Assembly (NCBI GenBank): GCA_934090735.1
Contig: CAKOJR010000002.1
Location: 138,788-202,787, forward strand
DNA length: 64,000 bases
From: an uncultured Bacilli bacterium
Lineage (GTDB): Bacteria > Bacillota_I > Bacilli_A > RF39 > UBA660
Direction: 5' to 3'
A program made the position numbers and the translations under genes. Positions 9,264 to 32,409 of this stretch are shown here, piece by piece. The notes under the pieces were generated by a model, which was given only the letters and a program-made list of their open reading frames with translations, was not told the origin of the DNA and ran no database searches. Every line of letters begins with the position of its first letter. Within the stretch, counting starts at the first letter, position 1.

Positions 9264-9286
9264 AAAAAAGAGCCTAGATTTAGGCT
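9264..9286 (-). terminator. rho-independent terminator after the T4CP gene (end of T4SS core operon)
   Basis: Minus strand AGCCTA-AATC-TAGGCT followed by CTTTTTTG, 2 nt after the stop at 9288. Confidence 0.55.
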
Positions 9287-9287
9287 T

Positions 9288-11573
9288 TTATTCGTTAAAG
9301 AAGTCATCATAGTATTGGTCGTCTGTTGTTTCATCACTTACAACTATGCTATCATTGTCAATATTAATAACTGGTTCTTCTTTATCTTTATTATCATATG
9401 TAGTACCTAAGTCAAAGCGTTCTATCTCGGGTTCTTCTTTTCTTTCTGGCTCGGTATTTTTAATTTCATTTTGCTTAGCTTTTTCTAGTTCTTCTTCTTT
9501 TTCTAATTCAGCTATTTTAGCATCTATTCTTTTTACTAAATCGTCAACGTCAAATTTAGGTGATGCTGGTTTTTCTTCTTGAACAGGCACTTTTTCTTCA
9601 AACGTAGGATATTTATCAAAATTAAATGCACTGTTGTTTTCTTCCTGTTTTGGAGGCTGAGTATTACTTTCCATAAATGATTTTTCAAATTTAGAATTAG
9701 AAGTTTTAATATCTTTAGGTGTTTCAGCGACTTTATTAAATGGATTAAATCCAGTACTTATATTATTAGTTTCTTTTGTTTCTTCTTTTTCTTGTTCAAT
9801 ATTTGGAACTGGTGTTGGAGTTACTGGTGGCTTTTTATCTAAAGCATCAAATAGTTTGTTACGTTTTTTTACTTTAACAAATTCTTTGATATCGAATAAA
9901 TCGATTGGTCTTTTTTCTCTTTCAACTAGTACTCCGTTTCCATAGTTTGAATTTCCCCAGTCTATTTCAAAACTTGGAGCTAATTTTGTTCTAAATGGAT
10001 TTAGTCTTGATCTTAAAATAATTACTTCAAATAGTTTTAATTTTTGAAGGTCACTAACTGTAATAAGTGGTGTTGATGCAGTTTTCTCTTTGTCTTTAGA
10101 TTTGACTTCACCACATAGTTTACTAATTTCTTCTAAAGCAGCTAGCTCTGTTGTTATTAAGTAAATTATGTTGCCACAGTTACTTCTGATAGTTTCTGCT
10201 TGTTCTTTACCATAAACGTCGTTTAACTGAGCAAAATTTTGGATGATGAATGTGAAACGGATTGCTCTACTACGGGCTGCAGTGACCATTGTTGTAACAT
10301 CTTTAAGTGGTGGCATGTTTGCAAATTCATCTAAAATAAAGTTTGTACGATAAGGTAATCTACCTTTTGGACTGTTTTGTGCTACGTCAATTAGTGTTTC
10401 ATATGCTTGCTTTAGGAAGATTGTTGCAAGTGCATGGTATGTTGTTTTTTCATCATGAATAATCATAAATACTGCCGTTTTTTGTCTACCTATATCTTCC
10501 ATGTTGAAGTCACTATATGATAACATTTCACTTAATTGTTCACGAGAAGCAAATAGTCTTATTTTTTGTCTAAATACAGATAATATACTTCCTTTAGTTT
10601 CATTTGGAGCGTTAATTGTGTTAGATGCAAATACATAAGCACTTGAGTCTTCTCCTTTTAACATGAAGTATTCTTTTGTGTAGTTGCTTGTTGCAAAGTT
10701 TTCTTCACCTACTGTTGACATGTAGTTGATAGAGTTTAAGTTTATTTGTGATTCTTTGGCATCTTCAAACAAACCTAGTGCAAGACCTGAAAAGAAGTCT
10801 GCTGCACTTTTTTCCCAGAATGGGTCATTTTTATTTTCTGGGTCATACAAAATATTTAAAGCTACGTCATCTAGTAACTCGGTTGCTTTATCTGTATTTC
10901 CTTCTTGATAAAGTTTATATGGAAGTGTTAGAGGGTTCCAAGCATTTCCCATATTTGGATTACGGAAGTTTAGAACGATTATTTTATATCCTCTTTTTCT
11001 AAGCATTTCTGAGTGATCACGGTAAAGCTCACCTTTTGGGTCAGTTAGAATCATACTTTCGCCTTTACGAGCTAAACTTTGTACTTGTGGGTCAACTAGA
11101 CATTTAGTTTTACCTGAACCGGTTGCTCCAATTACTAGGGTGTGATAGTCTCCATTATCTACCCACATATTTTTTCCATCATTTATTAAAGGAATACCAG
11201 CGGCTTTTGCTTCTTGCTCTTTGATAATAACTTTTTCAACACCAGTATCTTTTTTTACTTCGCTGGCTTTAGCCCATCTACTATATCCCTTTTCATCTTT
11301 TTCACCGATTTTTAAGCCTATACCTTTACCTTTTTCTCTTTCAAATATATATGATGATACACTACCAAAAATAGTTATAAGTACAACTATAAATACTATT
11401 AGTGTTGCTGCTATATAGTCTTTGGTAAATCCCATAAAAAAATTAAGTCCATAAAGTTCGGCTGTGCCAAGTAAACTAGTTATATTAAGCACTGCTAAAG
11501 ATGATAGAATTAGTAATGCTATACAAAATATTATAAATATTGTTAAATCTTTTGCAGTTACTCTAAATTTCAT
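9288..11573 (-). CDS. type IV coupling protein (VirD4/TraG/PcfC-like) with long acidic low-complexity C-terminal tail
   Basis: 761 aa. N-terminal TM helices, Walker A VIGATGSGKTK, Walker B-like NFILDEFANM. GAGGAGTG SD upstream. Last ~190 aa E/K/P/N-rich, ending DDQYYDDFFNE. Confidence 0.8.
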   Translation of the reverse strand: MKFRVTAKDLTIFIIFCIALLILSSLAVLNITSLLGTAELYGLNFFMGFTKDYIAATLIVFIVVLITIFGSVSSYIFEREKGKGIGLKIGEKDEKGYSRWAKASEVKKDTGVEKVIIKEQEAKAAGIPLINDGKNMWVDNGDYHTLVIGATGSGKTKCLVDPQVQSLARKGESMILTDPKGELYRDHSEMLRKRGYKIIVLNFRNPNMGNAWNPLTLPYKLYQEGNTDKATELLDDVALNILYDPENKNDPFWEKSAADFFSGLALGLFEDAKESQINLNSINYMSTVGEENFATSNYTKEYFMLKGEDSSAYVFASNTINAPNETKGSILSVFRQKIRLFASREQLSEMLSYSDFNMEDIGRQKTAVFMIIHDEKTTYHALATIFLKQAYETLIDVAQNSPKGRLPYRTNFILDEFANMPPLKDVTTMVTAARSRAIRFTFIIQNFAQLNDVYGKEQAETIRSNCGNIIYLITTELAALEEISKLCGEVKSKDKEKTASTPLITVSDLQKLKLFEVIILRSRLNPFRTKLAPSFEIDWGNSNYGNGVLVEREKRPIDLFDIKEFVKVKKRNKLFDALDKKPPVTPTPVPNIEQEKEETKETNNISTGFNPFNKVAETPKDIKTSNSKFEKSFMESNTQPPKQEENNSAFNFDKYPTFEEKVPVQEEKPASPKFDVDDLVKRIDAKIAELEKEEELEKAKQNEIKNTEPERKEEPEIERFDLGTTYDNKDKEEPVINIDNDSIVVSDETTDDQYYDDFFNE

Positions 11574-11624
11574 TTAAGTCACTCCTCATTTTTATTATAT
11601 CTTAATTTCAAATTATTTTCTAGA

Positions 11625-12314
11625 TTATTTGCCAGTATTTTTTGCCTTTATTAAAATATATGTAATTATCCCTAATAAAAGTACACCAATAACGATAAAT
11701 ATTAAATTAAAGTTTATTTCTGGTTTATTTATAGTTTCTTCGGTTTGTTCTATTTTATTATAATTGACATATACTTCTTTGGTCTTGTAGTTATCTTTGT
11801 TTAAATGCCAAGTATATGTATTACCATTTACTCCATCGGCATTATGTTTACTTACTTTTTTATTGATTGTTACGTTTATTGTTAATTTTTCTAAATCAGG
11901 GTAGTTTTCAAAGATGCTTCTTTTGTTTCCTAAATTTAAACTGATTATGTTGCCTACTTCAGTAATTTTAAAGCTAGGTAAATGTTCTTTAACAATGGTT
12001 GATGAAGGATATTCTTCTTTGGTTAGTTCGGTTTGATAGCGTACACCTATTTCATTATTAGTATCTATTTTAGTGATTTTATAATATTTTAGATTGTTTT
12101 GTTTAAAGTTAACTTCTGGTTTGTAGTAATTATCGTCAACTGGAATATTTGATTTTAATGCTATATTAATCGTTTTCTGCATTTTATTACTTTTATCGTT
12201 TGTTGTTAGAATTAGTTCTTCATTAAATGTATCGTTATCTATGTTTAGGTTATATACTGCTTCACATCCAGTTAGGGATATCGTTAGTATTAGAAGTATT
12301 ATTATTTTTTTCAT
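11625..12314 (-). CDS. lipoprotein with additional C-terminal TM helix, T4SS cluster
   Basis: Lipobox LTISLTGC after MKKIIILLI (start at ATG 12312-12314, GGAGG 5 nt upstream). C-terminal hydrophobic stretch LIFIVIGVLLLGIITYILI. Confidence 0.6.
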   Translation of the reverse strand: MKKIIILLILTISLTGCEAVYNLNIDNDTFNEELILTTNDKSNKMQKTINIALKSNIPVDDNYYKPEVNFKQNNLKYYKITKIDTNNEIGVRYQTELTKEEYPSSTIVKEHLPSFKITEVGNIISLNLGNKRSIFENYPDLEKLTINVTINKKVSKHNADGVNGNTYTWHLNKDNYKTKEVYVNYNKIEQTEETINKPEINFNLIFIVIGVLLLGIITYILIKAKNTGK

Positions 12315-12315
12315 T

Positions 12316-14115
12316 CTATCCTCCACAGTGATTAGAGTAATATGCACTCATGGAAACACCTGTATAGTATGCAGCTTGGTCATAGCCGTATGTACGGTAT
12401 TGGACACCGCCACCTGTTGATTCTGCTGCTTTGATTTCGCTTCCGGTGTTTTCTAAAACTAGAATTACGTGACCTGAGTTAGCCATTACGTCTCCTGGTG
12501 AGAGTTTGCTAAATGGGATATGTTCTCCCAAAGATAGGAAGCCAGATGCTCCGGTTGCACCAGTTACGTTAGCTGCATGCATTGCCCAAGTAACAAATCC
12601 TGAACAGTCTAAGCCTTTGTAATAGTCATAACTGCCGTTTGGTTTTTGCATACCTGGTCCAACGTTAGCTCCCCACTGTCTATCAACGATTGGGTTTTTA
12701 GCTACGTGGCCACCACCATAGTAGTATGGTAAGTGAAAGCCTTTAGCGTGCAGACCATCTATAAGAGCTATTGCTGCTCTTGCTACTGATTGACCAGAGC
12801 AACCTGTGCCTACTGCTGAACGAATTTTATTTTCTAGTTCTACTACACCTGATTCGCCTATTGCATCTACAAGACTTTGACCTTTTAGTTCGTTACTTTC
12901 GGAAATTGATGGATAATCAAAATCAGATGAAGCTCCAGCTATAGTATTTTTACTTAGTATATAATTAATGACTATATCATGAATTTTTTGATATGTGGTT
13001 GGTGTGTAGTGCAAGCCGTCTTCGGTTTCAAAATTATCTTTTATTTGAGAGTAAACGTCAATGTAGTTTTCTCCAAAGCCATTTTGCATTACTGAGTTAA
13101 ATTCTTCAATACTTGAGTTTGTTACTGAGTATCCGTTTTCGGCTTCTTTTGTTTCGTCTACTGGGTTTACACTCATTACATAAAAAGTAACTCCGTCATA
13201 TTTAGTTTTTAGTTCTTCATATTTTGATAGATAGCTTGAGCTATTTGATAAGTCATTTACTCCGAAAGCTAGGACAACAAATTTTTTGCTTTCAATTTTG
13301 TTCTCTAGTTCTGGTATGGCACTATTTGTAAACCATGCGTATCCTGCCCCTACCTGAGCAATACTCGTAATACTTTTATTAGTGATACTGCTCATCATAC
13401 CTACAATACGTGAGTCTCCCATATAAATCATTAAGTTTTCAGCTTCGGCTTTAGTGTATGCAGAAGAGTTATAATTTGTATCAGAGCTATAGCCTACATC
13501 TCCGCCACTACTTGTTAGATCAAGCATTGCACCTGTATTTGGGCCCATAATAATTAGTAGTAATGGCATGAAGAAAAAGAAAATGAGTGATGCACCTATA
13601 CCAATAAAGATTATTTTATTTTTTAGAGACATTTTTTTAAAAAAGGGAATGTTTAGGTTACCTTTATTTTGGTTACTAGCGTTATTATCAGTATCGGAAG
13701 AGTTATTTTCGGCAGAATTATTACCAGCCATTTTTTGGGCAGCAGATGAAGCTTTTTGGGCTTGCTCTGTTTTATCTACGGCGGCTGCTGCTCCAGCTGC
13801 ATCACTAATTCCACTTTCACTTAATTTGTTTGAAGCTTCTTGGATTTTATTTCCCATTGGCATTCTTTTAGTAATTTTATTTATTGCACTACCTACAATC
13901 TGGCTAGATCTTCCTCCTGTTAGTTTGTCGGCACCTTTGACGATTGCTCCTGCTATGACTGCATGCGGTATTTTAGTTTTCATTGCAACATTTGCAGCAT
14001 TACGAAGATTATTAGCATTATTTTCGGTGTTTCTTGCGTCTTGGCTTTTTTGTTCGTCGGCATTTGCATCTGGTGTTAAGTTGTTTGACTGAGCATGATA
14101 AGTTTCTTCGTCCAT
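12316..14115 (-). CDS. membrane-anchored wall hydrolase: SGNH/GDSL esterase domain + C-terminal NlpC/P60 endopeptidase
   Basis: 599 aa. Disordered N-terminus, TM (IIFIGIGASLIFFFFMPLLLIIM). SGNH blocks GDSR / VGAGYAW / FGVNDL / DGLHYT. NlpC/P60 Cys GLDCSGFVTW and His GHVILVLE. Confidence 0.75.
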   Translation of the reverse strand: MDEETYHAQSNNLTPDANADEQKSQDARNTENNANNLRNAANVAMKTKIPHAVIAGAIVKGADKLTGGRSSQIVGSAINKITKRMPMGNKIQEASNKLSESGISDAAGAAAAVDKTEQAQKASSAAQKMAGNNSAENNSSDTDNNASNQNKGNLNIPFFKKMSLKNKIIFIGIGASLIFFFFMPLLLIIMGPNTGAMLDLTSSGGDVGYSSDTNYNSSAYTKAEAENLMIYMGDSRIVGMMSSITNKSITSIAQVGAGYAWFTNSAIPELENKIESKKFVVLAFGVNDLSNSSSYLSKYEELKTKYDGVTFYVMSVNPVDETKEAENGYSVTNSSIEEFNSVMQNGFGENYIDVYSQIKDNFETEDGLHYTPTTYQKIHDIVINYILSKNTIAGASSDFDYPSISESNELKGQSLVDAIGESGVVELENKIRSAVGTGCSGQSVARAAIALIDGLHAKGFHLPYYYGGGHVAKNPIVDRQWGANVGPGMQKPNGSYDYYKGLDCSGFVTWAMHAANVTGATGASGFLSLGEHIPFSKLSPGDVMANSGHVILVLENTGSEIKAAESTGGGVQYRTYGYDQAAYYTGVSMSAYYSNHCGG

Positions 14116-14133
14116 AAGGCACCTTCCTTTCTT

Positions 14134-15122: not shown

Positions 15123-15136
15123 AAATTATCTCCTTA

Positions 15137-17236: not shown

Positions 17237-19027
17237 TTATAGTCCTCCACCTGAACCAAAGGAATCTAGTTCATCTTGAGTAAGAACTACATTTATTCTC
17301 ATACGTCTATTACCGCATACAAATAGTGCTTCACCTTGACTGTATGTTTTAATACTTTCTTTTTCATTGTCGTTTAGATCAATTAATCTTGATAAGTCTT
17401 CAACTGCTTGCTTTTTAAGTCCCATTACTAGGTAGTATGCTGCGTTGTCAAAGATTGCTTTTCCATGAACAAAGATATTTTCAGCAGCAAAGTCTGTAGG
17501 TTGCTGAGTGATAATGATTGTTCCTGTGTTGTATTTACGGCTACGTCTTTGAATTTGTGCTAGGAATTCGGCACCAAGTTCATTTTTACTTGATAGAAGA
17601 ACATGTGCTTCATCTACAAACATAATTGTATTTTTAGATTTATCTAAACATAATCCCCAAGCATATTTTAGAATGTTAAAGAATAATGCATTACGAATGT
17701 TTTCATCACTATTCATTAGTTCTTTAATATTAAATACTATAAAGTCACTCTTTGTTTCGATTGTTGTGTGTCCATTAAAGTAGAATCTTAGTTCTTTTAC
17801 AAAAGGTCTAACTCTTAGTTCTAGACGTTCCATAACGTCTTTTTCTCTTGTTGCTTCTGGCATTGATAAAAGTTTTCCTTTAATGGTTGCATATACGTCA
17901 TCAAAGATTGGAAAGTCTTTTGAGGTAAACTGACTAAAGTCTGTATTAAAATCAATACCGAATCTTTTATAAGTGTCTTGAACAACTTCACTAAACATTG
18001 CTAGAACGTCTTCTTCGATTGATGGATAGTAATATTTCATGAAGGCTTTTAATGATTGAAGAGTTCTTGTTAGAACTGTGTATCCTAAACCTTCTTTGAT
18101 TTCTTCTTCATCCGCATCGAAAATTACTTCTAGTGGGTTTACCATACCAAATGAACCACCACGACCTAAATCAATGAAATCGCCACCAAAGTTATGAGTC
18201 ATTTCACTTAATTCGCCTTCAGGGTCAATAGCAATAATTTTACAACCGTTTCTTATATGTGTTCTAAGCATTAGTTTAGCAGCAGTTGATTTACCACTAC
18301 CAGAAGTACCTAAAATAATCATGTTAGCATTGTTTCTATTAAACTCTTTTTTAGTTTGATATAAGAACTGATTAAATAAGACTACACCACCAGAGAAATC
18401 AACACCTAATAATGTGCTTGATCCTGGATCTTTAATACTATCAAAAACAAATGGGTACATTGCTGCTATTGTTGGACTAGGAATAGGAATACCTACTCTT
18501 TGCTCTACGTCTTGTTTAGGGAATATAGGAATCATTGATTTTAGAACTTTTTCTTGCTCAAACATCATTGGGATTCCCCTCATTCCCATTGCATCAAGAT
18601 AGTTTCTAATTTGCATTTTTTTATTTTCTAATTCTTCTTTTGTATCAGCTGTTAGCATGATATGCATTTGAAAGTCAAATATTTTTGATTGAGTTGCTGC
18701 AAGCATTTGGGCAAATGATTCTAAAGATTCGTAATCTTGACGAATTATTTCTTGCCTTGTTCTTTCATTTTCTCTTTGATAACTTTCTTTTAAATCAGCT
18801 ATTTGTTTATTGATCATACGACTCATTGTAGAAAAGTCGATAGGAATATGTTTAATTACCACTTTTACACCTGGTAAGTTAGTAATATTTGCTAAAAATC
18901 CAGGGCCTATAATTTTGGGGTAACTTATGATAGTTAATATTGTTGCATATTTATCACTAATCATAAATTCATTTACATCGAATTTCATTCCTTTAGGAGC
19001 TATTTCACTTTTAAATGTATTAGACAT
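17237..19027 (-). CDS. VirB4-family T4SS ATPase, C-terminal (ATPase) portion
   Basis: 596 aa. Walker A ILGTSGSGKST, Walker B IMFVDEAH. N-terminal segment DKYATILTIISYPKIIGPGFL is typical of Gram-positive VirB4/TraE/PrgJ proteins. Confidence 0.85.
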   Translation of the reverse strand: MSNTFKSEIAPKGMKFDVNEFMISDKYATILTIISYPKIIGPGFLANITNLPGVKVVIKHIPIDFSTMSRMINKQIADLKESYQRENERTRQEIIRQDYESLESFAQMLAATQSKIFDFQMHIMLTADTKEELENKKMQIRNYLDAMGMRGIPMMFEQEKVLKSMIPIFPKQDVEQRVGIPIPSPTIAAMYPFVFDSIKDPGSSTLLGVDFSGGVVLFNQFLYQTKKEFNRNNANMIILGTSGSGKSTAAKLMLRTHIRNGCKIIAIDPEGELSEMTHNFGGDFIDLGRGGSFGMVNPLEVIFDADEEEIKEGLGYTVLTRTLQSLKAFMKYYYPSIEEDVLAMFSEVVQDTYKRFGIDFNTDFSQFTSKDFPIFDDVYATIKGKLLSMPEATREKDVMERLELRVRPFVKELRFYFNGHTTIETKSDFIVFNIKELMNSDENIRNALFFNILKYAWGLCLDKSKNTIMFVDEAHVLLSSKNELGAEFLAQIQRRSRKYNTGTIIITQQPTDFAAENIFVHGKAIFDNAAYYLVMGLKKQAVEDLSRLIDLNDNEKESIKTYSQGEALFVCGNRRMRINVVLTQDELDSFGSGGGL

Positions 19028-19577
19028 TACTCATCACCGTCCCATACTCATTTTTCTTTCCTCCATTAAGGAAGTTTTGTAGCAAAAATTTTAAGTCATC
19101 ATCACTTGCTTGTCTTGAATTTAAGCCGCAACCGGCTAAGTTTGCAATCATGGTTTGAACTCTTTTTTGAACTACGTCTAGTCTTTTATCTCTAAATAAG
19201 AAAAAGTATTCTGTATCGACAGCGCTAATACTGCTTCCACTAAACATTTCGGCTTTTTGAATGTCTTGATTAATTAGTTTTCTTACAGCCTGATTTTGTG
19301 CATTATCGTATTGTAATTGTAGTTGGGATAGATACAATTTGATATCTACTGGTCTATCTGCTACTACTAGCCAGAATTCATAGTCTAGTGTGTTATAAAA
19401 ATTTCTTAAATTAAAGATTATGGTATTTTGAGTTTGATAATCAAGGATAAAGATATTTTTTGGTTCTACCTTTATACCTGTAACATAATAATTGTTATTT
19501 AGGATTATCATTCCATTTTGAATGGCTTTAACTGGTACCCAATCTTCAGAATACTTACTTGTCATCTGTTTTGCCAT
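19020..19577 (-). CDS. VirB4-family N-terminal domain encoded as a separate, translationally coupled ORF
   Basis: Start set at MAKQMTSKY (AAGGTTGGTG SD 8 nt upstream). Sequence WVPVKAIQNGMIILNNNYYVTGIKVEPKNIFILD resembles the N-terminus of full-length Gram-positive VirB4. Stop overlaps the next ATG (ATGTCTAA). 185+596 aa approximates a normal VirB4 length. Confidence 0.6.
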   Translation of the reverse strand: MAKQMTSKYSEDWVPVKAIQNGMIILNNNYYVTGIKVEPKNIFILDYQTQNTIIFNLRNFYNTLDYEFWLVVADRPVDIKLYLSQLQLQYDNAQNQAVRKLINQDIQKAEMFSGSSISAVDTEYFFLFRDKRLDVVQKRVQTMIANLAGCGLNSRQASDDDLKFLLQNFLNGGKKNEYGTVMSNV

Positions 19578-19878
19578 AACTATTACACCAACCTTTCCAA
19601 TAATAAACTCGATTATTTGTATAATATGTAAATACGTTTTTAATAAATGTTCGTACGTTATGCTGATTTGGTAAAGGTACAATTAAGAACGTACAAATTA
19701 GTGCCGGGCAAAGTATTATAAGTGCTGTTTTTAAGTTATTTGTAGGTATTGATAGCATAAGTACGAAGCTTATTACAACACCACTTATAAATATGATTAA
19801 ATCCGTTGTATTAAATAACCCAAGTATTAACATTGATTTTTTTGAGTTTGCCGGTATCAAGTAATTATTATTATCCAC
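19555..19878 (-). CDS. VirB3/PrgI-like small membrane protein
   Basis: 107 aa. GTG start with AGGAGG 8 nt upstream. Two hydrophobic helices. Lies immediately upstream of VirB4, as VirB3/PrgI does. Confidence 0.45.
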   Translation of the reverse strand: MDNNNYLIPANSKKSMLILGLFNTTDLIIFISGVVISFVLMLSIPTNNLKTALIILCPALICTFLIVPLPNQHNVRTFIKNVFTYYTNNRVYYWKGWCNSYGKTDDK

Positions 19879-20342: not shown

Positions 20343-22426
20343 TATTTTTTATCCTTCTGTTTTTCTACTGTGCTTGCAAATGTATTTGCTTTAACTTGTT
20401 TATTAATTGCTTTAGAAACATCTCTAAGTTTTGCTATATCATCAGGTGTTGCCAGTTGCTCACTTGCTCTAGTGAAAATTTCACCCAACTCATCTATACT
20501 GGTTATACCATTTGCAGCAAGAACTGCTTTTCTCGCTTCATCTCCTAATGTGTTAAGTGTTTTTTCCATTTGTGAGCATATTATCTTGCCTTCGTCCTTT
20601 AGTGCACTTCCAAATGCTGCATCGTTAAACTTTTGTTCTAATGTTTCTCTTTGTAGTTCCTCAAAATGAGCATTAATTATACCATCATCTAAATTAGTTA
20701 CTGGCACGGCTGTTCCTGCAGCATATAATGTTCCATCTTTTCCTTTAATTTCTTTTCTAAACCTAACACTTTTACCATTTTGATAATCTTTTAATGCACC
20801 TTTTCTTGCGCTTTCAGTTTCTGGATCTGTAAATGCATCAAATAGTGTTGTGAATTTTGATTTCATCGCTTGAGCTGCTGCTAGTTTTTCATTTGAAACT
20901 CCCCTATTATTAAGGAAATTATCAAGATTGTTAATTTTTCCTGAAACCCATGTCTTAGGGTCTTGAGTAGCTGCTTGTGCTTCTGAAACTACTGTATCTT
21001 TTAGATGAACTGCTTTGCCAGGAATTGCTCTTACATCATTTTTAATTGCATTGATATCTGCAATTTCTTGAGTTCTTGCATTTCTGATAGCACCTTTTAC
21101 TTCGCTCCAGTCACTAACATTACCATTTTGCCATCCTCTACGTCCTGCGTTAAGTGCTGTAGGAACAACTCCTGCTAAACCAAGTGCACCTCTGGCTAGT
21201 CCACGGGCAATGTGTCTTTGACCTTTTTGATCTTTTTTAAATCCTTCAACAAATGCTTTTCCACTGTTAAATAGTGATTGAGGCACTCTTGCTGCTACTG
21301 CACCGCCAAGTGTTGCTGCTCTTTTTGCATATTCATTATCATTAAGTTTTTTCTTGATTGACATTTCTGGTATTTTAATACTAAATATTTCTTCGATAAG
21401 TTTTGGGGCATCTTTAGCAAATTTTAAGATTCCTAAGATTACAACTACGGTTGCTACTATGTTTACTAAGGCACTACCACCACTAGCAAATACGTTAATA
21501 TCAGATACAAACCCGATTAAGAGCATTGCAAAGTTTATAATAATTATTCTTTCAAATATTTGTAGATATGTTTTAGAGAACTCACCAAACCATTTGTCGA
21601 ATACGCCACCTTTTGGTTTTGTTATTCTTAATAGTATTGGAACAGGTGCGATTAATTTTAGTGCCCCTAGTTTAGCTGCTCTTACTCCTAAATCTAATGA
21701 GAATGATAAGAATAGATATGCTGCTACTACACCTGCAATGGTACTTAATGGGAATAGGTATTCCATTTTTTCATCACTGATGCCTTGTCTTAAATCTGGA
21801 TCTTTAAAGAAACGATAAAGACCAGTCATACTATTTTTTCCTTCTTCTGCAAGTTCTCTATAATGTTCGCACATTTCTATTGATGAGTCTTCACATTCAA
21901 CTAAAGTAACTGCTTCTTTATTTTCATTAAGTGGATGATAAAAAGCAGTAAAAATTGTTACAGAAACATTTAATGCTCCTTTAGTCGTTCCATTTTCTCC
22001 TGAGTCACTGGCAGTTGATCCCATTATAAGATTACCTAATGTGTTGTTTTCAACAATATGGTCTTGGAATATCTGCATATACTCGCAAATTAATGGGAAT
22101 AATGTAACTAAAACTATTGATATAATGGTATTTTGAATAATATTCTTAATTGATTTATCACCTTTATTTAATTGATCCGGGTCAATTATGGAAAGAATGA
22201 TATTGTATGCGAAAACAAAAAGCATTACGATACCAATTATCGTATATATTCTTCTTGATATAACGCCTACGTTTTCTGTTGTAAATACTTCTACTTTACT
22301 AACTACTTCAAATAGCTGGTAACATACATTTATAATCATGTATATAACATAATCTATTGATAGAAGAATCCCATAAAAAATATTGGCTGCCCAGGTTCCG
22401 AATCCAGCTCCTGTTAGTATTCCCAT
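20342..22426 (-). CDS. VirB6/TrbL/PrgH-like polytopic membrane protein with large hydrophilic C-terminal domain
   Basis: Start at MGILTGAG (AGGAGG 7 nt upstream). About 6-7 TM helices in the first ~370 aa, then a Lys/Ala-rich soluble half. Assignment from topology, size and position only. Confidence 0.45.
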   Translation of the reverse strand: MGILTGAGFGTWAANIFYGILLSIDYVIYMIINVCYQLFEVVSKVEVFTTENVGVISRRIYTIIGIVMLFVFAYNIILSIIDPDQLNKGDKSIKNIIQNTIISIVLVTLFPLICEYMQIFQDHIVENNTLGNLIMGSTASDSGENGTTKGALNVSVTIFTAFYHPLNENKEAVTLVECEDSSIEMCEHYRELAEEGKNSMTGLYRFFKDPDLRQGISDEKMEYLFPLSTIAGVVAAYLFLSFSLDLGVRAAKLGALKLIAPVPILLRITKPKGGVFDKWFGEFSKTYLQIFERIIIINFAMLLIGFVSDINVFASGGSALVNIVATVVVILGILKFAKDAPKLIEEIFSIKIPEMSIKKKLNDNEYAKRAATLGGAVAARVPQSLFNSGKAFVEGFKKDQKGQRHIARGLARGALGLAGVVPTALNAGRRGWQNGNVSDWSEVKGAIRNARTQEIADINAIKNDVRAIPGKAVHLKDTVVSEAQAATQDPKTWVSGKINNLDNFLNNRGVSNEKLAAAQAMKSKFTTLFDAFTDPETESARKGALKDYQNGKSVRFRKEIKGKDGTLYAAGTAVPVTNLDDGIINAHFEELQRETLEQKFNDAAFGSALKDEGKIICSQMEKTLNTLGDEARKAVLAANGITSIDELGEIFTRASEQLATPDDIAKLRDVSKAINKQVKANTFASTVEKQKDKK

Positions 22427-25821: not shown

Positions 25822-26061
25822 CTATTCTTCTTTATTTGGACATTGTACTGGTTGTATAGCGTTGTTTTCATCTAAATATGAACAATCACATAACTCTGCA
25901 CCTTCGGTACACTCACAGTTGAATGCTTGAGAACAGTTGGCACTTCTTGTAATGTTTGCTCTAATTGAAGGCCAAATAAATGAAGTAAATACTACTCCTA
26001 TTGCAGCAATTGCAACTACTGCTACCGCAGTCATACTTAATTCACCTGATGCTTCTTTCAT
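25822..26061 (-). CDS. small pilin-like protein: short charged leader, hydrophobic helix, six-Cys C-terminal region
   Basis: 79 aa. MKEASGELSMTAVAVVAIAAIGVVFTSF, then NCSQAFNCECTEGAELCDC...QC. Strong AAGGAGG SD. Confidence 0.3.
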   Translation of the reverse strand: MKEASGELSMTAVAVVAIAAIGVVFTSFIWPSIRANITRSANCSQAFNCECTEGAELCDCSYLDENNAIQPVQCPNKEE

Positions 26062-26115: not shown

Positions 26116-26120
26116 TTCTT
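26097..26120 (-). terminator. rho-independent terminator after the 137-aa VirB2-like gene
   Basis: Minus strand AAGAATTG-ATTTA-CAATTCTT (8-bp stem) followed by TTTAT. Confidence 0.55.
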
Positions 26121-26121
26121 T

Positions 26122-27664: not shown

Positions 27665-27673
27665 ATTACCTCC

Positions 27674-27713
27674 AAAAAAAGATACCGACTTGTTAACCAA
27701 AATCAGGTATCTT
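27674..27713 (-). terminator. hairpin terminator/attenuator between the 200-aa and 383-aa adhesin genes
   Basis: Minus strand AAGATACC-(19 nt)-GGTATCTT followed by T6, which runs directly into the GGAGG of the next gene. Confidence 0.45.
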
Positions 27714-27750
27714 CAAATCTATATTAATAATATCATAAAATTATTAATAT

Positions 27751-28353
27751 TTAAATCTTTTTAAATACATTTTTCTTATTTAAAATAAATAGTCCACCAA
27801 TTAATACAGCAGCAGTTGTTCCTAATAATAGATAATAGTCTTCTACACCAGTGTCTGGATTTGTTCCGTCATCTTTAGTTGTATCGCTTGAACCATCGCC
27901 ATCTTTATCTGCTGTTTTTGTAGTAGTAGTTGTTGTTTTATAATCATCACCACTTGTATTTTTTGCACAGTTATAAAATATTTTTTGAGTGAAGTAAACA
28001 TATGGACCACTATCTGTACAAGATGAGCCTGCTTTCATTTCACTAGTTATTGCTCCAGCGTCAATTATAGCATTTGGTTTAGTGTTGCCATTAGCACAAC
28101 TTACTGAGTATGTATTAAGTTTTGTATGAACATTTTTACTATTTGTACAAGATACTTTAATACATTCTAAATAGTAACCTGCGGTGGCATTTGAAATGCT
28201 TGTGCCACCGTTTTGATTAACTGCTTCTTTACATTTGGTTTCAGCGTCTTGTTCATCTTTTAAATTCCAAATTGTTGTTGTTGTATTTTGATCTACTTTA
28301 GCAAATACACCTATAGGCATTATGAGTAATAAACTAATTAATAATTTTTTCAT
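27751..28353 (-). CDS. surface protein: signal peptide, Cys-rich head homologous to 26513-27664, Thr-rich stalk, NPDTG sortase-type sorting signal
   Basis: GYYLECIKVSCT...SVSCANGNTKP aligns with GYYGHCVKATCY...LVRCSNGNTDP. C-terminus NPDTG + hydrophobic + KKNVFKKI. Confidence 0.6.
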   Translation of the reverse strand: MKKLLISLLLIMPIGVFAKVDQNTTTTIWNLKDEQDAETKCKEAVNQNGGTSISNATAGYYLECIKVSCTNSKNVHTKLNTYSVSCANGNTKPNAIIDAGAITSEMKAGSSCTDSGPYVYFTQKIFYNCAKNTSGDDYKTTTTTTKTADKDGDGSSDTTKDDGTNPDTGVEDYYLLLGTTAAVLIGGLFILNKKNVFKKI

Positions 28354-28360
28354 ATTATCC

Positions 28361-31300
28361 CTACTTTCCTAAATATTCTTTCATTTTTTTATGTTTCTTA
28401 CGAACTACTATTATTATACCCGCTCCTAGAATAATTACACTACCAATTAATACGGCGGTAATTTCTAGTGTTTTGTTGTAACTATCTTTTTGAATATCTA
28501 TTGAGTAGATATTTGTAGCTCCGTTTTCAGCAACTACTTTGATTCTTACTGTACTAAATCCAGTTAATGAGTTATTACCATACATGTATACTTCAGATCT
28601 ATTACTTGTAGGTGTTGCTGTTATGATTAAGCTCTTTTCTCTTTTGATTTTGACTGTGTAGTCTAGTTTTTCTGGAGAGAAGTCAATTCCATAATTTTTA
28701 ACTGTTAATGATGAAAGAGTAACGTCGTTAGATATTTCTAAACCAGCTTCTTTTCTGATTACTGTTACAGTATATGTTTTTGTTAATTTACCATTTTTGA
28801 CAGTTATTTTTAGGTTATTAGCACCAACTTTAAGGCCTCTATCACCTTCAACTTCAGCAAAGGCATTATCGCTTTCTGGGAAGGCGTATACGTTTACTGA
28901 TGAGTATTCATATGGAACGGTTACTGCGTATTCATAAATTTCTTTATTAAAGTCAATTGCTGTTCCTTCGATTGTTAGTGTGTCTAAGTAAGCACTTGTA
29001 CTAGTTTCTTCTTCAGCACCTTTTTTAATGAATGTTAGAACGTAACTTCTTGTGATACCAGATTCACTGATTACTTCAAGTACTGATGTGGTAATGTCTT
29101 CGGTTAGTTCTACTTCACGAGGTTCATTTCCTTCAACGAATGATGAAGTATCACTAGCAAGTGTACCATTAATACTTACCTTTTTAGTGTTCTTTGGTAC
29201 TTCAATGTTGTAGTCTGTTACATATGGGTCAAATTCAATTTTTCCTTTACTTACTGTTAAGTCTGTTAGTAAGTTGTTTGAAACTCTGTCATCTGTTCTT
29301 GTTGCGATGATTGTATAAGTTCTTACTTTGCCAGATTTGTTTTTAATTTTGATTAAGATTTTATTTTCGCCATATTCTAGATTTACTGTTCTTGGTTCAT
29401 AGCCTTCAACGTATGAAGCGTCGTCGCTAGTAAGAGTTGCAAATACACTTATTTTATCACTGTTAACTTCGATTTTGTAACCCATTGATAATGAGTCGAA
29501 ACCAGCTAAAGCTTTGTCATTTTTAAGTCTATTTGATAGGAGTGAGTAACCACTTGGCATTACGTCTAAATAAGCATTTTCACCTTCAATACTATTTAAG
29601 GTTACTGCTACATCATTAGCATCTTTAACACTTAGTGATTCAAGAGTGTTTGTAATATCAGCGTCATGAACGATTGCAAACATTGGTCTACTTAAGATAC
29701 CTTGGTCATCTCTAACCCATGCATAGTATAGACCAGCAGGTTTTTGTTCATATGCTATTGTGTTAGCATCAGCAAAGTCTTTCCAAACGCTATCCACTGT
29801 TGGATTTGATGAATCATCTAGATAGTAACTTTTAACATCATTAGAAATTTTTCTTCCTTTTACAGTGATTGTTCCTAATCCTTGATTTAGTAGTGATGCG
29901 GAAATTTCAACAGCAGGTCTTGTACCATTTGAGCAAGATACTAGGTATGTTTTATGACATGTTCCGTTTTTAACTTTATTACATGTATTTTCAGTTTGTT
30001 CTACTGGATTTTGTGTATAATCTTTTGCACATGTGAACATGTCCATTACGTCGATATTTTCAACAATTTTATTATCTTTCTTTTCATAACAGATATTTAT
30101 TTTTTTACTTACATCTGTTACATCAGTTTGTTTTTCACTTGACTTACAGTCTTTTTCACCGTCACCATTAAGAGCGTTACATTCATCTTCATTTTGTGCT
30201 GATTCATCAATTTCGTATTTATCTGATAGGTCTTCTTCTGACCAAATATATTCGTCTTTATCTTCATTATAGTAGCATCTAGCTTCTACTGGTTTTTCGT
30301 CTTCTGGTGCACATGATGATTTATCAATTTGTCTAGCTGTTAAATCGTTACGATATACGTAGCCTTCGGTGCCATCATAAGTTACTTTACAATATTGACC
30401 ATTTGAATAAGCACAAGCTTCTGTCATGTTTCCAGAAATTTTTACTGATTCTGCACACGGAATATTATTGTCAGATGAACCACCAATGTCTCCTGTGTTT
30501 GTATATAAAGGGGTAGATCTTAAAGTATATCTTGTTTGTTCTTTACAACTTGCAGGTATAGCATCAAAGCTTACTACTAACTGATTACGATAAACTTTAG
30601 TAGTTGTGTTTACTGATACACCATTTACTTTAGTAATCGTACATGTTGGGTTAGCACTTGAAGATGCTGTTTCACATGTAGTTACATAAACTTCATCACC
30701 ACATGAAACTTTATATCCACCAGCTGAAGCATTTTCTTTAGCATATCTTATTGCATTAACAGGTTCAGTATTTGGTGTTGGTGTTGGCACAGGAGTTACT
30801 GGAGAAGGTGATGGAGTGGTTGAAGTAGACTTCCACTGTGCATAATATGCTGTATCAGAGTTGTGTACTACGCCTCTTCCTGGCTGTACATATGATGAAC
30901 AAGCTTTTGCATTTTTACAATATCCTAAAAATTTATAATTTGATCTTGTTGGTGTTGGCATATCGATTGCACATGAGGTGCTATTGCATGTTTTTGTTTG
31001 AATGGATTCACCTGTATTATAAAATGTTCCACCGTTTCCATTAAATACTACTTCGAAAGAATTTGTTGATTGCCATTGTGCATAGTATGTGGCAGCTGCA
31101 CTATGTACTACGCCTCTTCCTGGTTGTACATATTTTGAACATGTTTTTGCATTTTTACAATATCCTAAAAACTTATAATTTTTTCTTGTTGGTGTTGGCA
31201 TATCGATTGCACATGAGGTGCTATTACAGGTTTTTGTTTGAGTGGATTCGCCTGTATTATAAAATGTTCCACCATTTCCATTAAATACTACTTTGAAAGA

Positions 31301-32353
31301 ATTTGCTGAGCTACATTCTGATGGCTTTGTTGTATTATAATATTTTGAATTTAATCCTGAATATGTTTTTCCATTATATGTAAATGAACATATTGCTCCT
31401 TGAGAGTTTCCATTACATGTTGTTACTTTTATTTCTGAACATTTTTTGATTGTTTCATTACTTCCAGAACTGTTTTTTACTGTTGTATCTGATGTTATCC
31501 ATGCAGTTTTATTTACTACATTGCCGTCACCAGTTACTGTAATATTAACAGTCACTTCGGTTTTTTGAAATGCATAATAAAGTTTAATCTTTGCGGTTCC
31601 GGGGCTTATACCTTTGACATTATTATACAAGCCAGAAGTGTTTGCAAAATGCTCTACTGAAATAAAATTGTTGCCTTGTAAAATATCATAAGTTCCAGAA
31701 GTTGCGCTAGAACCAGTTCCATAACCACATGCTAATGCCACTTTACTTCTTATTTCTAATGAATCACCTGCTTTAATGCTATAATTAAACGTCTCACCGC
31801 CCTTACAATAATTACTGCACTTGGATAAGACCGTTCTGCAGGAATAACTAGCAGAGGCTTCACAAATGCTTGCGGGAATATCTGAACAGCTTTGTGCTGT
31901 TTTTGTTTGACAGGTACTATCTATTTTAGTTGCTGAATATTCATCCGTTTTAGTTTTGCATGTTTTGGATTTTACTTTGTATACTGTTGCTTTATACTGG
32001 TTATTACTTTTTTCTATTACATAGCATGCATCAGTATTATTTATTGACATACTGTTAGATTCACATTTCAAGTATTTGTTAACCATGGTTTCTAATTTGT
32101 CTTTTCTTGAATGAAATTTTGTTTCAACAACTTTTGTTTTATCTGGTGTTGCATACCAAAGTTTACAAGTTTTGCATTGATAATAAGTATATGGTCCTAA
32201 TGCTGCTAATGCGTTTGAATCATTATCAATTGTTTCAAATTGACCATTTGAATTTTCCGCTTTATTATCACTTAAACTTATCTTACTTATACTAAAAAAT
32301 AATATAGGTAAAATTAGTAGTAATAATAAATATAGATATTTTTTCTTTTTCAT
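28361..32353 (-). CDS. giant adhesin (1330 aa): Cys-rich N-region, Ig-like and SH3b-like segments, two Listeria-Bacteroides (Flg_new) repeats, Pro/Thr linker, at least four cadherin-like beta-sandwich repeats, C-terminal TM anchor
   Basis: Signal peptide. 80-aa duplicated unit VVFNGNGGTFYNTGES...KFLGYCKN...YYAQW. SPSPVTPVPTPTP linker. Four LxxLxV...Y.v.v repeats near the C-terminus. Anchor ITAVLIGSVIILGAGIIIVVRKKHKK. AGGAGAG SD. Confidence 0.7.
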   Translation of the reverse strand: MKKKKYLYLLLLLILPILFFSISKISLSDNKAENSNGQFETIDNDSNALAALGPYTYYQCKTCKLWYATPDKTKVVETKFHSRKDKLETMVNKYLKCESNSMSINNTDACYVIEKSNNQYKATVYKVKSKTCKTKTDEYSATKIDSTCQTKTAQSCSDIPASICEASASYSCRTVLSKCSNYCKGGETFNYSIKAGDSLEIRSKVALACGYGTGSSATSGTYDILQGNNFISVEHFANTSGLYNNVKGISPGTAKIKLYYAFQKTEVTVNITVTGDGNVVNKTAWITSDTTVKNSSGSNETIKKCSEIKVTTCNGNSQGAICSFTYNGKTYSGLNSKYYNTTKPSECSSANSFKVVFNGNGGTFYNTGESTQTKTCNSTSCAIDMPTPTRKNYKFLGYCKNAKTCSKYVQPGRGVVHSAAATYYAQWQSTNSFEVVFNGNGGTFYNTGESIQTKTCNSTSCAIDMPTPTRSNYKFLGYCKNAKACSSYVQPGRGVVHNSDTAYYAQWKSTSTTPSPSPVTPVPTPTPNTEPVNAIRYAKENASAGGYKVSCGDEVYVTTCETASSSANPTCTITKVNGVSVNTTTKVYRNQLVVSFDAIPASCKEQTRYTLRSTPLYTNTGDIGGSSDNNIPCAESVKISGNMTEACAYSNGQYCKVTYDGTEGYVYRNDLTARQIDKSSCAPEDEKPVEARCYYNEDKDEYIWSEEDLSDKYEIDESAQNEDECNALNGDGEKDCKSSEKQTDVTDVSKKINICYEKKDNKIVENIDVMDMFTCAKDYTQNPVEQTENTCNKVKNGTCHKTYLVSCSNGTRPAVEISASLLNQGLGTITVKGRKISNDVKSYYLDDSSNPTVDSVWKDFADANTIAYEQKPAGLYYAWVRDDQGILSRPMFAIVHDADITNTLESLSVKDANDVAVTLNSIEGENAYLDVMPSGYSLLSNRLKNDKALAGFDSLSMGYKIEVNSDKISVFATLTSDDASYVEGYEPRTVNLEYGENKILIKIKNKSGKVRTYTIIATRTDDRVSNNLLTDLTVSKGKIEFDPYVTDYNIEVPKNTKKVSINGTLASDTSSFVEGNEPREVELTEDITTSVLEVISESGITRSYVLTFIKKGAEEETSTSAYLDTLTIEGTAIDFNKEIYEYAVTVPYEYSSVNVYAFPESDNAFAEVEGDRGLKVGANNLKITVKNGKLTKTYTVTVIRKEAGLEISNDVTLSSLTVKNYGIDFSPEKLDYTVKIKREKSLIITATPTSNRSEVYMYGNNSLTGFSTVRIKVVAENGATNIYSIDIQKDSYNKTLEITAVLIGSVIILGAGIIIVVRKKHKKMKEYLGK
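30824..31303. repeat. 2 x 240-bp in-frame tandem repeat inside the adhesin gene
   Basis: Units 30824-31063 and 31064-31303. My hand alignment gives 29 mismatches in 240 nt. Each unit encodes one 80-aa Flg_new-type repeat. Confidence 0.9.
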
Positions 32354-32380
32354 TTTACTCTCTCCTACTTTCTATATATT

Positions 32381-32409
32381 ATTGTAAAGCATACGTTAAA
32401 AAAAAGCAA
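32381..32409 (-). promoter_or_regulatory. putative sigma-A promoter of the adhesin operon
   Basis: Minus strand TTGCTT-N17-TACAAT, ~25 nt upstream of the 1330-aa ORF start. Confidence 0.35.

Follow-up and report, generated by a model that had tools for sequence, protein, structure and literature searches.

A 64,000-nt stretch of DNA from an uncultured bacterium of the Bacilli (RF39; UBA660), positions 138,788 to 202,787 of contig CAKOJR010000002.1 (assembly GCA_934090735.1) and hereafter called the window, carries a chromosomal type IV secretion system (T4SS) that is probably a functional machine, fixed in its host and exapted, rather than an integrative and conjugative element (ICE). The locus spans positions 9288-32353 of the minus strand and consists of 21 intact open reading frames (ORFs), all in the same direction, with the gene set of a monoderm T4SS. 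An earlier note on this DNA had counted about 22 such minus-strand ORFs and called them long and uninterrupted; the shared direction and the intactness hold, and the count between these positions is 21. Judged from its genes, the locus is best explained as a conjugation-derived T4SS of the MPF_FATA type, from a branch that it would have in common with pAW63/pXO2 plasmids and mycoplasma ICEs. The same explanation supposes that its DNA-processing and mobility modules were lost and that it has since been inherited vertically in a lineage of uncultured gut Bacilli.

The position of the locus carries much of this argument. In three GTDB species representatives whose DnaI proteins are 95-96% identical, the T4SS follows directly after dnaI, and it does so too in a lineage with DnaI only 69% identical (L007/L008; related loci are numbered with the prefix L). 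When metagenomes were scanned with an alignment of DnaI, 13 loci came back, and the site was occupied wherever DnaI was at least 62% identical and the downstream DNA was sufficient. The ten occupied loci (L033-L038, L040-L042 and L044; DnaI 62-98% identical) include a third lineage at 62-63%. At the other end, the sister-species MurE variant has the T4SS beside murE in 24/24 long contigs, which come from many samples and one of which reaches 1.13 Mb. All 24 run from VirB4 through VirD4 to a 252-aa gene, the rhodanese-like gene and MurE; ten of them, each from a different sample, are shown here (L019-L028). Synteny had been proposed as a check for an empty murE...dnaB site. Every informative relative was occupied, with no empty site among more than 35 related loci that offered enough sequence. 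The window is AT-rich, at about 30% GC, and its GC content shows no break at the T4SS. With the same dnaI site in three lineages down to 62% DnaI identity, the constant link to murE and the even composition, the description of an island wedged between core genes does not stand; the position of the T4SS, as far as synteny can tell, is ancestral and fixed.

Both flanks had been called housekeeping DNA (murE and dacB-spmAB on one side, dnaB-dnaI on the other), and profiles bear this out. Beyond virD4 lie MurE, an S11 DacB-like peptidase, two SpmA/B-type 'Gate' proteins and a pseudouridine synthase, and a homologue of the rhodanese-like gene follows virD4 in L007/L008 (54% identical), in L010 and in L019-L028. 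Exact-protein look-ups for two flank genes gave no result. We considered dnaB-dnaI as an element-borne replication module and rejected it: these are host genes, because DnaI scores above the primosomal cutoff, is 95-96% conserved and has housekeeping genes beyond it.

The rates of substitution lead to the same conclusion. Pairwise ratios of nonsynonymous to synonymous substitution (dN/dS) for the genes of the locus lie between 0.04 and 0.5, and their synonymous divergence (dS) from L003/L004, at 0.36-1.4, occupies the same range as that of the flanking core genes (0.5-1.5). Thus the locus has diverged together with the chromosome under purifying selection. VirB4 is 88% identical to its counterpart in L007 (dN/dS 0.07), whereas DnaI of the same pair reaches only 69%. 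Fixed-site inheritance by descent, purifying selection and the absence of DNA transfer and replication (Dtr) genes are among the traits of an exapted chromosomal T4SS, and all three were found. Domestication, one of the explanations put forward earlier, is in this respect strongly supported by the fixed site, the purifying selection and the missing empty site.

The complementary evidence is what the locus lacks. From no ORF tested across the 64-kb window did Pfam or NCBIfam give a match to a relaxase, integrase or transposase family, in agreement with the absence of relaxases and recombinases reported earlier, and the precomputed annotation of related loci likewise holds no tyrosine, serine or DDE recombinase. 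With the MobP3 relaxase of the Bacillus thuringiensis plasmid pBMB68 (NZ_CP010581.1) as query, tblastn gave no match (E<=0.01) to the window or to L001-L013, while the VirD4, TrsD-like and VirB4 proteins of that plasmid do match. Nor do the junctions have a direct repeat in common, as had been noted before: their longest shared word, 8-12 nt, is equal to or below that of shuffled controls. A tRNA scan and an Rfam scan of the window gave no matches, and the window thus offers no attachment (att) site of the tRNA type. Four features define an ICE, namely a site-specific recombinase, a relaxase, attL/attR repeats and empty sites in relatives. Because each was looked for and none was found, we do not class the locus as an ICE.

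It had been suggested that a relaxase of an unrecognised family might hide among the ORFs of unknown function, and this suggestion finds no support. The tandem 248-aa genes next to virD4, the small pair next to dnaI and the 148-aa gene are each absent from some relatives, and the 356-aa protein has a TadZ/MinD fold. No previously named unknown ORF is thus a plausible conserved relaxase. Apart from the TadZ-fold protein, which is the only larger cytoplasmic one, the soluble unknowns measure 94-178 aa and are not conserved across lineages. The same facts bear on an ordinary ICE strictly specific for the dnaI-proximal site, with its integrase and relaxase unrecognised or outside the stretches examined. 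Occupation of one site in many genomes is typical of such elements, and the order adhesin, channel, coupling protein resembles that of pCF10. We nevertheless hold this to be very unlikely: besides the missing integrase, relaxase, repeat and empty site and the small size of the soluble unknowns, the genes at both junctions are conserved across lineages at 62-69% DnaI identity, and dS inside the locus equals that of its flanks.

Several points weigh against a functional, host-fixed system and are best considered together. Conserved position, taken alone, would also be expected of a strictly site-specific ICE, and the absence of relaxase and integrase covers the 64-kb window and the related loci, so that either may be encoded elsewhere in the genome. 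The VirB3, VirB6, VirB2-like pilin and VirB8-like assignments are sub-threshold matches or follow from position only. The functions of the components are predicted from the genes of an uncultured organism, and no candidate effector was identified. Two loci, moreover, have lesions. One contig (L015, ERZ27286955:k141_8014) differs from the window by 3 mismatches in 20,446 positions, all inside a 53-nt stretch of virB4 (L015 11316-13106, equivalent to window 17237-19027), and one of the three turns codon 379 into a nonsense codon. This could mark an inactivated strain or, as the differences are clustered within 53 nt, a local assembly error. In the 1.13 Mb sister-species contig L026 (6426-8763), virD4 is called as two genes of 695 and 94 aa, with the acidic tail split off; the other nine sister-species loci shown (L019-L025, L027, L028) have an intact virD4 of 778 aa. 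If real, the nonsense codon and the split would mean that the T4SS is dispensable at least in the short term.

The nonsense codon would also suit a decaying, functionless remnant of a conjugative element, as would the loss of tight adherence (Tad) motor genes (CpaB-like, TadA, TadB, TadC and DUF5411) relative to L012 and L029. Such a remnant is the least probable of the alternatives that we considered, since all 21 of 21 ORFs are intact, dN/dS stays within the range given above at near-saturated dS, and VirB4 is 84-97% identical across hundreds of metagenome contigs. We return, then, to the exapted T4SS and its parts, whose coordinates are collected in the table.

Features of the T4SS locus and its immediate neighbours (positions in the window; TM, transmembrane)
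Feature	Position	Strand	Basis or context
Rhodanese-like gene, 71 aa	7318-7533	-	Conserved downstream neighbour; weak Pfam match
Two tandem membrane-anchored paralogs, 248 aa each	7590-9168	-	Between virD4 and rhodanese-like gene
Terminator-like hairpin and T run	9271-9286	-	Hairpin scan; directly 3' of virD4 stop codon
VirD4-type coupling protein, 761 aa, last gene of locus	9288-11573	-	Pfam and NCBIfam profiles
Lipoprotein-like protein, 229 aa, C-terminal TM	11625-12314	-	TrsH/TraH position, directly upstream of virD4
Membrane-anchored wall hydrolase, SGNH/GDSL-like and NlpC/P60-like, 599 aa; second VirB1 analogue	12316-14115	-	
Two bitopic proteins, 162 and 167 aa, N-terminal TM and domain of about 130 aa	14134-15122	-	TM prediction
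M23 peptidase and lysozyme wall hydrolase, 693 aa	15137-17218	-	Directly downstream of virB4
VirB4 ATPase, C-terminal two-thirds, 596 aa, TrsE-like	17237-19027	-	Pfam, NCBIfam, 4ag5
VirB4 N-terminal domain as separate protein, 185 aa, TrsD/TraC-like	19020-19577	-	Mbov_0397 model
VirB3/PrgI/TcpE-like protein, 107 aa, two TM segments	19555-19878	-	Weak profiles
Soluble protein, 148 aa, fast-evolving, lineage-restricted	19896-20342	-	Homologues in only six clusters among 5.8 billion proteins
VirB6-like polytopic membrane protein, 694 aa, long soluble C-terminal extension	20342-22426	-	TM topology
VirB2-like pilin paralog 1, 115 aa	22438-22785	-	Pfam T4SS_pilin 1.3e-4, below cutoff
Membrane-anchored Peptidase_C39_2 papain-like protein, 299 aa	22864-23763	-	Between two pilin genes
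VirB2-like pilin paralog 2, 108 aa	23866-24192	-	Pfam T4SS_pilin 6.8e-4, below cutoff
TadZ/CpaE-like two-domain protein, 356 aa	24252-25322	-	Predicted structure and fold search
TadE-like minor pilin-like protein, 158 aa	25335-25811	-	Homology to L010/L012 Tad-like operons
Small pilin-like protein, 79 aa, conserved MKEA(S/T)GEL leader	25822-26061	-	
VirB2-like pilin paralog 3, 134 aa	26122-26526	-	Local alignment to paralogs 1 and 2 (25-31%)
Adhesin, 383 aa	26513-27664	-	Pfam Cadherin-like 5.5e-9; signal peptide, C-terminal TM anchor
Small surface protein, 200 aa, signal peptide and C-terminal TM anchor	27751-28353	-	Weak EF0750-type surface-protein match
Large adhesin, 1330 aa, Flg_new and cadherin-like repeats, C-terminal TM anchor	28361-32353	-	Pfam
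Two small charged soluble ORFs, 94 and 178 aa, stop/start overlap	32566-33386	-	Between dnaI and locus
dnaB-dnaI primosome genes	33454-35635	-	Conserved upstream neighbour; DnaI 245 bits (NCBIfam cutoff 228), DnaB E=1.4e-72

Both signature ATPases stand up to profile searches. For the VirD4-type coupling protein (T4CP), which had been recognised earlier from the motifs VIGATGSGKTK and FILDEFANM, the profiles agree: it matches Pfam T4SS-DNA_transf at E=5.9e-55, as well as TrwB_AAD_bind and TraG-D_C, and scores 304 bits against the NCBIfam family conju_CD1115 (cutoff 250). It has two predicted N-terminal transmembrane segments and an acidic low-complexity C-terminal tail, is 68% identical to its counterpart in L007 and 54-60% identical to those in L010/L012, and shows a dN/dS of 0.17. 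VirB4, likewise recognised from its motifs (GTSGSGKST, FVDEAH), matches Pfam AAA_10, P-loop_TraG and DUF87, the solved VirB4 C-terminal domain 4ag5 (E=2.5e-56) and the NCBIfam model of Mbov_0397-type VirB4 (E=1e-106; 357 bits, under the family cutoff of 590). What has to be corrected is the extent of VirB4, which is spread over three genes. The VirB3-like, TrsD-like and ATPase genes correspond to consecutive parts of that one NCBIfam model (positions 2-96, 71-281 and 294-891), the TrsD-like part at E=4e-16. An identical copy of the TrsD-like gene is annotated as PF26593 TraC-like, and the protein is 33% identical to the equivalent pBMB68 gene. The VirB3-like protein also finds Pfam TcpE (E=5.5e-5, below cutoff), and its ortholog in L012 is weakly annotated as PF26592 PrgI_like.

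We asked whether the split virB4 was a frameshifted pseudogene and ruled this out, because all of the best 120 homologues listed are 589-604 aa long (about 596 aa, and 84-97% identical) and because the TrsD-like protein is a separate gene in pBMB68 and in Patescibacteria. By this comparison the three-gene arrangement is native. In a library clustered at 50%, the VirB4 clade is represented by a single sequence (70% identity), the next ones stand at 43-45% and the rest at or below 34%; the nearest outgroup, at 45%, lies on a contig of only 2 kb. Of the components that define the MPF_FATA type, a VirB4 ATPase, VirD4, a VirB3/PrgI-like protein and separate TrsD-like protein, and VirB1-like hydrolases are present.

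The remaining channel candidates, VirB3-, VirB6- and VirB2-like, had all been named earlier, and a candidate was found for each, with profile matches that fall below cutoff. The VirB6-like protein has six predicted transmembrane segments, a weak match to NCBIfam ICE_Mbov_0396_TM (E=1.9e-6; 27.6 bits, cutoff 70) and no Pfam match; its orthologs in L007, L009, L012 and L029 keep the position. The two bitopic proteins, retained in L007 and in L019-L028, matched no Pfam or NCBIfam family and gave nothing useful in sequence searches of the Protein Data Bank (PDB). By position and topology they may be VirB8-like. The 229-aa lipoprotein-like protein has an LTGC lipobox, a weak NCBIfam TrsH match (E=1.4e-3) and a positional ortholog in all related loci. 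Two multi-domain wall hydrolases had been reported, and both are confirmed; a third hydrolase-like gene, that for Peptidase_C39_2, had been missed. The 693-aa hydrolase matches Pfam Peptidase_M23 (2.7e-24) and Phage_lysozyme (2.5e-7) above cutoffs, and Peptidase_C39_2 is likewise above cutoff (2.9e-19) in the 299-aa protein, for which no ortholog was detected in L007. In the 599-aa hydrolase Lipase_GDSL (23.3 bits) and NLPC_P60 (22.1 bits) both stay slightly under the Pfam cutoff, and in L007 the same slot holds a C39_2/C70 domain instead.

The hairpin directly downstream of the virD4 stop codon marks the predicted end of the operon. The dnaB-dnaI pair had been credited with a terminator of its own; the hairpin scan of the interval between dnaI and the T4SS gave no terminator-like structure, and the clear one stands 3' of virD4 instead. 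Promoter scans returned about as many hits as shuffled sequence and are uninformative in DNA this rich in AT.

Five genes in the upstream half encode pilin-like proteins; two of these, with one protein of TadZ-like fold, connect the locus to Tad pili. The three VirB2-like pilins are 25-32% identical to one another, and the third has the same hairpin topology and C-terminal Cys motif as the other two; paralog 2 is 96% identical in L003/L004 with a dN/dS of 0.04. Between them lies the 356-aa protein, a member of a family of about 320 proteins without a Pfam domain. An AlphaFold2 (AF2) model built from 57 sequences (mean predicted local distance difference test, pLDDT, of 84) comprises a receiver-like N-terminal domain and a domain of the MinD/ParA/HypB fold. 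Foldseek retrieved HypB, MinD, FlhG and ParA and a match over both domains to 3fkq, which we take to be the Eubacterium rectale TadZ structure. The P-loop (Walker A) is degenerate, and a PDB sequence search with the TadZ-like profile gave nothing useful. On the strength of the model we call the protein TadZ-like.

Genomic context in relatives agrees with this name. In L010/L011, L012/L013 and L029, a homologue of the 356-aa protein closes a Tad-like operon, and T4SS genes come next. These operons encode DUF5411, a CpaB/RcpC-like protein, a T2SSE ATPase, two polytopic membrane proteins, one or two small pilins and TadE-like proteins. The 158-aa protein of the window has 36-40% identity to the products of the genes next after the pilin genes of the L010 and L012 operons (E=1e-21 to 1e-30), and the 79-aa protein is 47% identical to an 82-aa gene of L010 directly after the TadB/TadC-like genes. 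Genes of the TadA/TadB/TadC type are present in L010, L012, L029 and pBMB68, while tblastn of the window with L010/L012 proteins found no homologue of the TadA ATPase, the TadB/TadC platform, the CpaB-like protein or DUF5411. By these homologies the pilin-like, TadE-like and TadZ-like trio is what is left of a Tad-like pilus module, of which other lineages and the plasmids have the complete set. The likeness to Tad/Flp (type IVc) pili consists in a TadZ-fold protein and pilin/TadE-like genes embedded in the T4SS operon; the window has no motor, platform or CpaB-like gene. The classical Flp pilin leader motif is G/XXXXEY, whereas the leader here reads MKEA-x-GEL.

For processing the pilin-like proteins that the locus encodes, the window offers a single candidate, an A24 prepilin peptidase at 39537-40292, outside the locus. 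The gene for this 251-aa peptidase is part of a type IV pilus/Com-like trio at 39052-41968 on the minus strand, which also encodes an N_methyl pilin of 158 aa and a T2SSF platform protein of unusual length (555 aa); no assembly ATPase is adjacent, the next gene being phosphoglucomutase. We also tried the 555-aa T2SSF protein as a fused TadB-TadC and dropped it, as no similarity to the TadB/TadC-like genes of L012 was detectable.

Two related gene neighbourhoods deserve mention on their own account. L010/L011 encode, beside the full Tad-like block, VirD4 together with a 256-aa protein and a C39_2 hydrolase, and have the flanking genes of L007, rhodanese-like and RmuC; one member of this cluster is labelled as a metagenome-assembled genome of [Clostridium] spiroforme. 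L010 has no VirB4/VirB6/VirB3 block within 21 kb, a state complementary to that of the window. It would be unusual for a T4CP to be linked with a Tad pilus where no T4SS channel is present; alternatively, channel genes may lie further upstream. In L031/L032, a 45%-identical TadZ-like homologue is part of another cluster, with a HerA_C ATPase (524 aa), LysM/CW_7 and Phage_lysozyme2 hydrolases and a 1545-aa FHA and FtsK_SpoIIIE protein resembling EssC. The TadZ-like adaptor may there be reused with another translocation ATPase.

All three adhesins reported earlier were found, each with a C-terminal transmembrane anchor. The 383-aa adhesin combines a Cys-rich head, a Thr-rich stalk and cadherin-like repeats. 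The large adhesin varies from 1105 to 1330 aa across species, and its N-terminal segments are 53-62% identical as against 84% over the C-terminal 830 residues. Elsewhere in the window, at 51742-53635, a 376-aa plus-strand ORF without a family match, whose C-terminus resembles (32%, E=1e-4) the surface-protein-like gene after virD4 in L010, lies next to the gene for a 248-aa protein that has a Flg_new repeat, and the two may form a further surface-protein cluster.

Around and within this conserved set lie a few small ORFs that differ between lineages. The 148-aa protein is 25% identical to a 139-aa gene in the same slot of L007 and is absent from L009 and L012; its AF2 model, built from six sequences, is all-helical and, with a pLDDT of 52, too poor for a fold search. 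The 94-/178-aa pair occurs in L003 and L036 but in neither L004 nor L007, and matches no family in Pfam, NCBIfam or PHROGs; it is a variable accessory and not a core part of the T4SS. PHROGs gave nothing informative on the unknown ORFs in general. The 248-aa paralogs are 59% identical in amino acids, and 139/150 of their first nucleotides are the same, which suggests duplication with gene conversion at the 5' end. Near-identical hairpins (AGCCTA...TAGGCT) at 7575-7591 and 9271-9286 each stand after or close to one of them. The gene is single in the sister species L019-L028 (252 aa) and absent from L007; the pair is a lineage-specific addition.

Which known systems come nearest? The earlier comparison with pCF10-type loci holds for gene order, as pCF10 prg/pcf runs in the same overall sequence of adhesins, channel and T4CP; by sequence the nearest are pAW63/pXO2-type plasmids and mycoplasma ICEs. 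In pCF10, PcfD-G including the relaxase come next, whereas a terminator follows virD4 here, and the window adhesins have C-terminal transmembrane anchors in place of an LPXTG motif. The trs operons of pGO1/pSK41 (pGO1 subclass) are similar in layout, with the TrsC/TrsD/TrsE-like split, one or more hydrolases and, by the weak TrsH match, a TrsH-like protein preceding the T4CP.

The best plasmid matches are pAW63/pXO2-type plasmids of B. thuringiensis (VirB4 29%, VirD4 34% identity). In pBMB68 the order is MobP3 relaxase, VirD4 (CD1115), a hypothetical gene, TrbL/VirB6, PrgI, a hypothetical gene, VirB4 and NlpC/P60, and further downstream DUF5411, a SAF-domain protein, an AAA ATPase, an ATPase of the type II secretion/type IV pilus (T4P) type and two membrane proteins. 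The run of VirB6/TrbL, PrgI-like VirB3, separate TrsD-like protein, VirB4 and wall hydrolase is thus a common core. The plasmid Tad-like block (SAF/CpaB-like and so on) is homologous to the block beside the T4SS in L010, L012 and L029, where the SAF protein, the ATPase and one membrane protein find tblastn matches in L010/L012. The differences are that in the plasmid virD4 is directly preceded by a MobP3 relaxase gene, with a primase, plasmid functions and mobility in addition, while the window locus is without a relaxase, chromosomal and fixed; that virD4 is the first gene there and the last here; that the Tad motor genes are missing from the window; and that identity is only about 30%. Likely, on this comparison, a composite T4SS and Tad conjugation module became chromosomal and lost its relaxase, and the present lineage then also lost the Tad motor. 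The concept of T4P-assisted conjugation is familiar from the T4SS and T4P chimeras IncI R64 and PAPI-1, and L012 and L029 have a full Tad-like block beside the T4SS.

Among curated profiles, the mycoplasma ICEs (ICEA/ICEB CDS5, CDS16, CDS17) supply the best NCBIfam matches, Mbov_0397 for VirB4 and Mbov_0396 for the VirB6-like protein, both below cutoffs, and they have the same arrangement of a VirB6-like gene next to VirB3/VirB4. In mycoplasmas VirB4 is a single VirB3-TrsD-VirB4 fusion, as judged from the 894-position model, in contrast to the three genes here; the elements are mobile, with a DDE transposase and no preference for an insertion site, unlike the window locus. They have no VirB1- or VirB8-like components, which has been linked to the physiology of a membrane without a wall (review PMC12857230).

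The closest analogue in concept lies in another phylum. Chromosomal T4SSs of Patescibacteria, which are monoderm hosts with small genomes, are derived from MPF_FATA systems and have a separate TrsD and divergent VirB2-like pilins in arrays; directly downstream of virB4 come genes for a peptidase and a lysozyme, most clusters lack a relaxase and replication genes are often near (Quinonero-Coronel et al. 2025, PMC12102498). These traits have their counterparts here. In Patescibacteria a link between the T4CP and virB4 is rare; here the T4CP gene invariably closes the locus, and no adhesins are reported there against three here. Within Patescibacteria, essentiality of the T4SS has been shown only in Southlakia (PMC12102498; review PMC12857230). 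VirB2 subunits and the potential for a conjugative pilus have been said to be unique to Patescibacteria among T4SSs of Gram-positive and monoderm bacteria (2025 review, PMC12857230). The window locus, with pilin matches below the Pfam cutoff, would be an exception from the Bacilli. Our literature search on T4SSs of RF39/Erysipelotrichaceae found no paper describing this locus.

We propose the following mode of action for the exapted T4SS. The adhesins, together with the VirB2-like and Tad-type pilin-like proteins, would contact a neighbouring cell, and the three hydrolases would open the cell's own wall. VirB3, the TrsD-like protein, VirB4, VirB6 and the two bitopic proteins would form the membrane channel, through which VirD4 would pick a cytoplasmic substrate and feed it outward. 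Retention of the T4CP after loss of the relaxase is the usual signature of effector-translocating T4SSs. The DNA-uptake T4SSs, Helicobacter pylori ComB and archaeal Ced/Ted, are also host-kept conjugation machinery without a relaxase, and ComB and Ced are not known to have a VirD4-type coupling protein. Since VirD4 is conserved and always linked here, export is indicated rather than import. Ced itself has been mentioned as an exapted system (PMC12102498).

For these reasons, the T4CP kept, the relaxase lost and the uptake systems without a T4CP, we rank protein delivery to, or interaction with, neighbouring cells first among the possible activities, as a tentative choice made by analogy. Transfer of DNA, by relaxases encoded in trans or by a relaxase-independent route, comes second and is, by similar analogy, likewise possible without being probable. 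Adhesion only, the third, seems distinctly unlikely.

The T4SS might serve as a conjugative helper, in which the fixed channel and T4CP move DNA canonically with the relaxase and origin of transfer (oriT) of integrative and mobilizable elements, of small plasmids or of a distant chromosomal locus, much as the earlier note had envisaged. The nearest characterised relatives are indeed DNA-conjugation systems, the T4CP scores above the cutoff of the conjugative CD1115 family, and mobilisation in trans is common in Firmicutes (PMC9673590). We think this improbable nonetheless. The 64 kb and the related loci yielded no relaxase, and if parasitic elements alone profited, it would be hard to see why a host-fixed machine should stay under purifying selection for so long; VirB4 at 88% identity against DnaI at 69% argues for a direct benefit to the host.

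The link to mycoplasma ICEs raises another possibility, distributive and relaxase-independent exchange of chromosomal DNA like mycoplasma chromosomal transfer (MCT), with the T4SS as a mating pore and non-HUH host functions processing the DNA. The best curated families of VirB4 (Mbov_0397, 357 bits) and of its neighbour (Mbov_0396) are those of mycoplasma ICEs. In ICEA only CDS5 and CDS17 are listed with conjugation-related homologues and no relaxase gene is assigned, a relaxase appearing only in the authors' transfer model (PMC6030558), and MCT departs from Hfr/oriT models (PMC6819513). Contigs of 1.13-1.16 Mb hint at small genomes, in which exchange would be valuable. The case is pure analogy, however, with NCBIfam scores below the family cutoffs and with mycoplasma ICEs that, unlike this locus, move by a DDE transposase; we consider such exchange unlikely.

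A bolder proposal, which by analogy to Patescibacteria we regard as rather doubtful, is that the locus is a Firmicutes counterpart, possibly from the ancestral stock, of the Patescibacteria-type T4SS: a host-fixed machine with a pilin array that a gut bacterium with a genome of about 1.1 Mb would need for cell contact, either for relaxase-less exchange of chromosomal DNA or for exploiting other bacteria. If true, the potential for conjugative pili would extend from Patescibacteria to Bacilli, and the mycoplasma ICEs, the Patescibacteria systems and this locus would form one relaxase-poor branch of T4SSs.

Two further observations concern the host rather than the T4SS. Its sporulation-associated genes, of the SpmA/SpmB type (1625-2720) and the CotZ type (38164-38610), are very conserved, the CotZ-like protein being 98-99% identical between species; they stand alongside longest contigs of the lineage of about 1.13-1.16 Mb. 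Between CotZ and dnaB, at 35715-37961, is a Cwp84-like secreted cysteine protease (Peptidase_C1, Lectin_like and Big_2). Its identity is only 72% between species in which the adjacent genes reach 95-99%, with a dN/dS of about 0.15, and by this divergence it is a fast-evolving surface protein.

In conclusion, Gram-positive T4SS loci without a relaxase are usually dismissed as decaying ICEs, and the comparative evidence presented here points in the opposite direction. The locus would be the second monoderm case, after Patescibacteria, of a domesticated T4SS with arrays of VirB2-like pilins. Its relatives form a series of layouts, from a plasmid with relaxase and Tad genes, through a chromosome with Tad genes, to a chromosome without the Tad motor, that should be useful for asking how conjugation systems are exapted and what role a coupling protein has once the relaxase is gone. 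Furthermore, the system offers a candidate mechanism by which cells might interact or genes might move in a common but poorly understood group of human-gut Bacilli with apparently small genomes.

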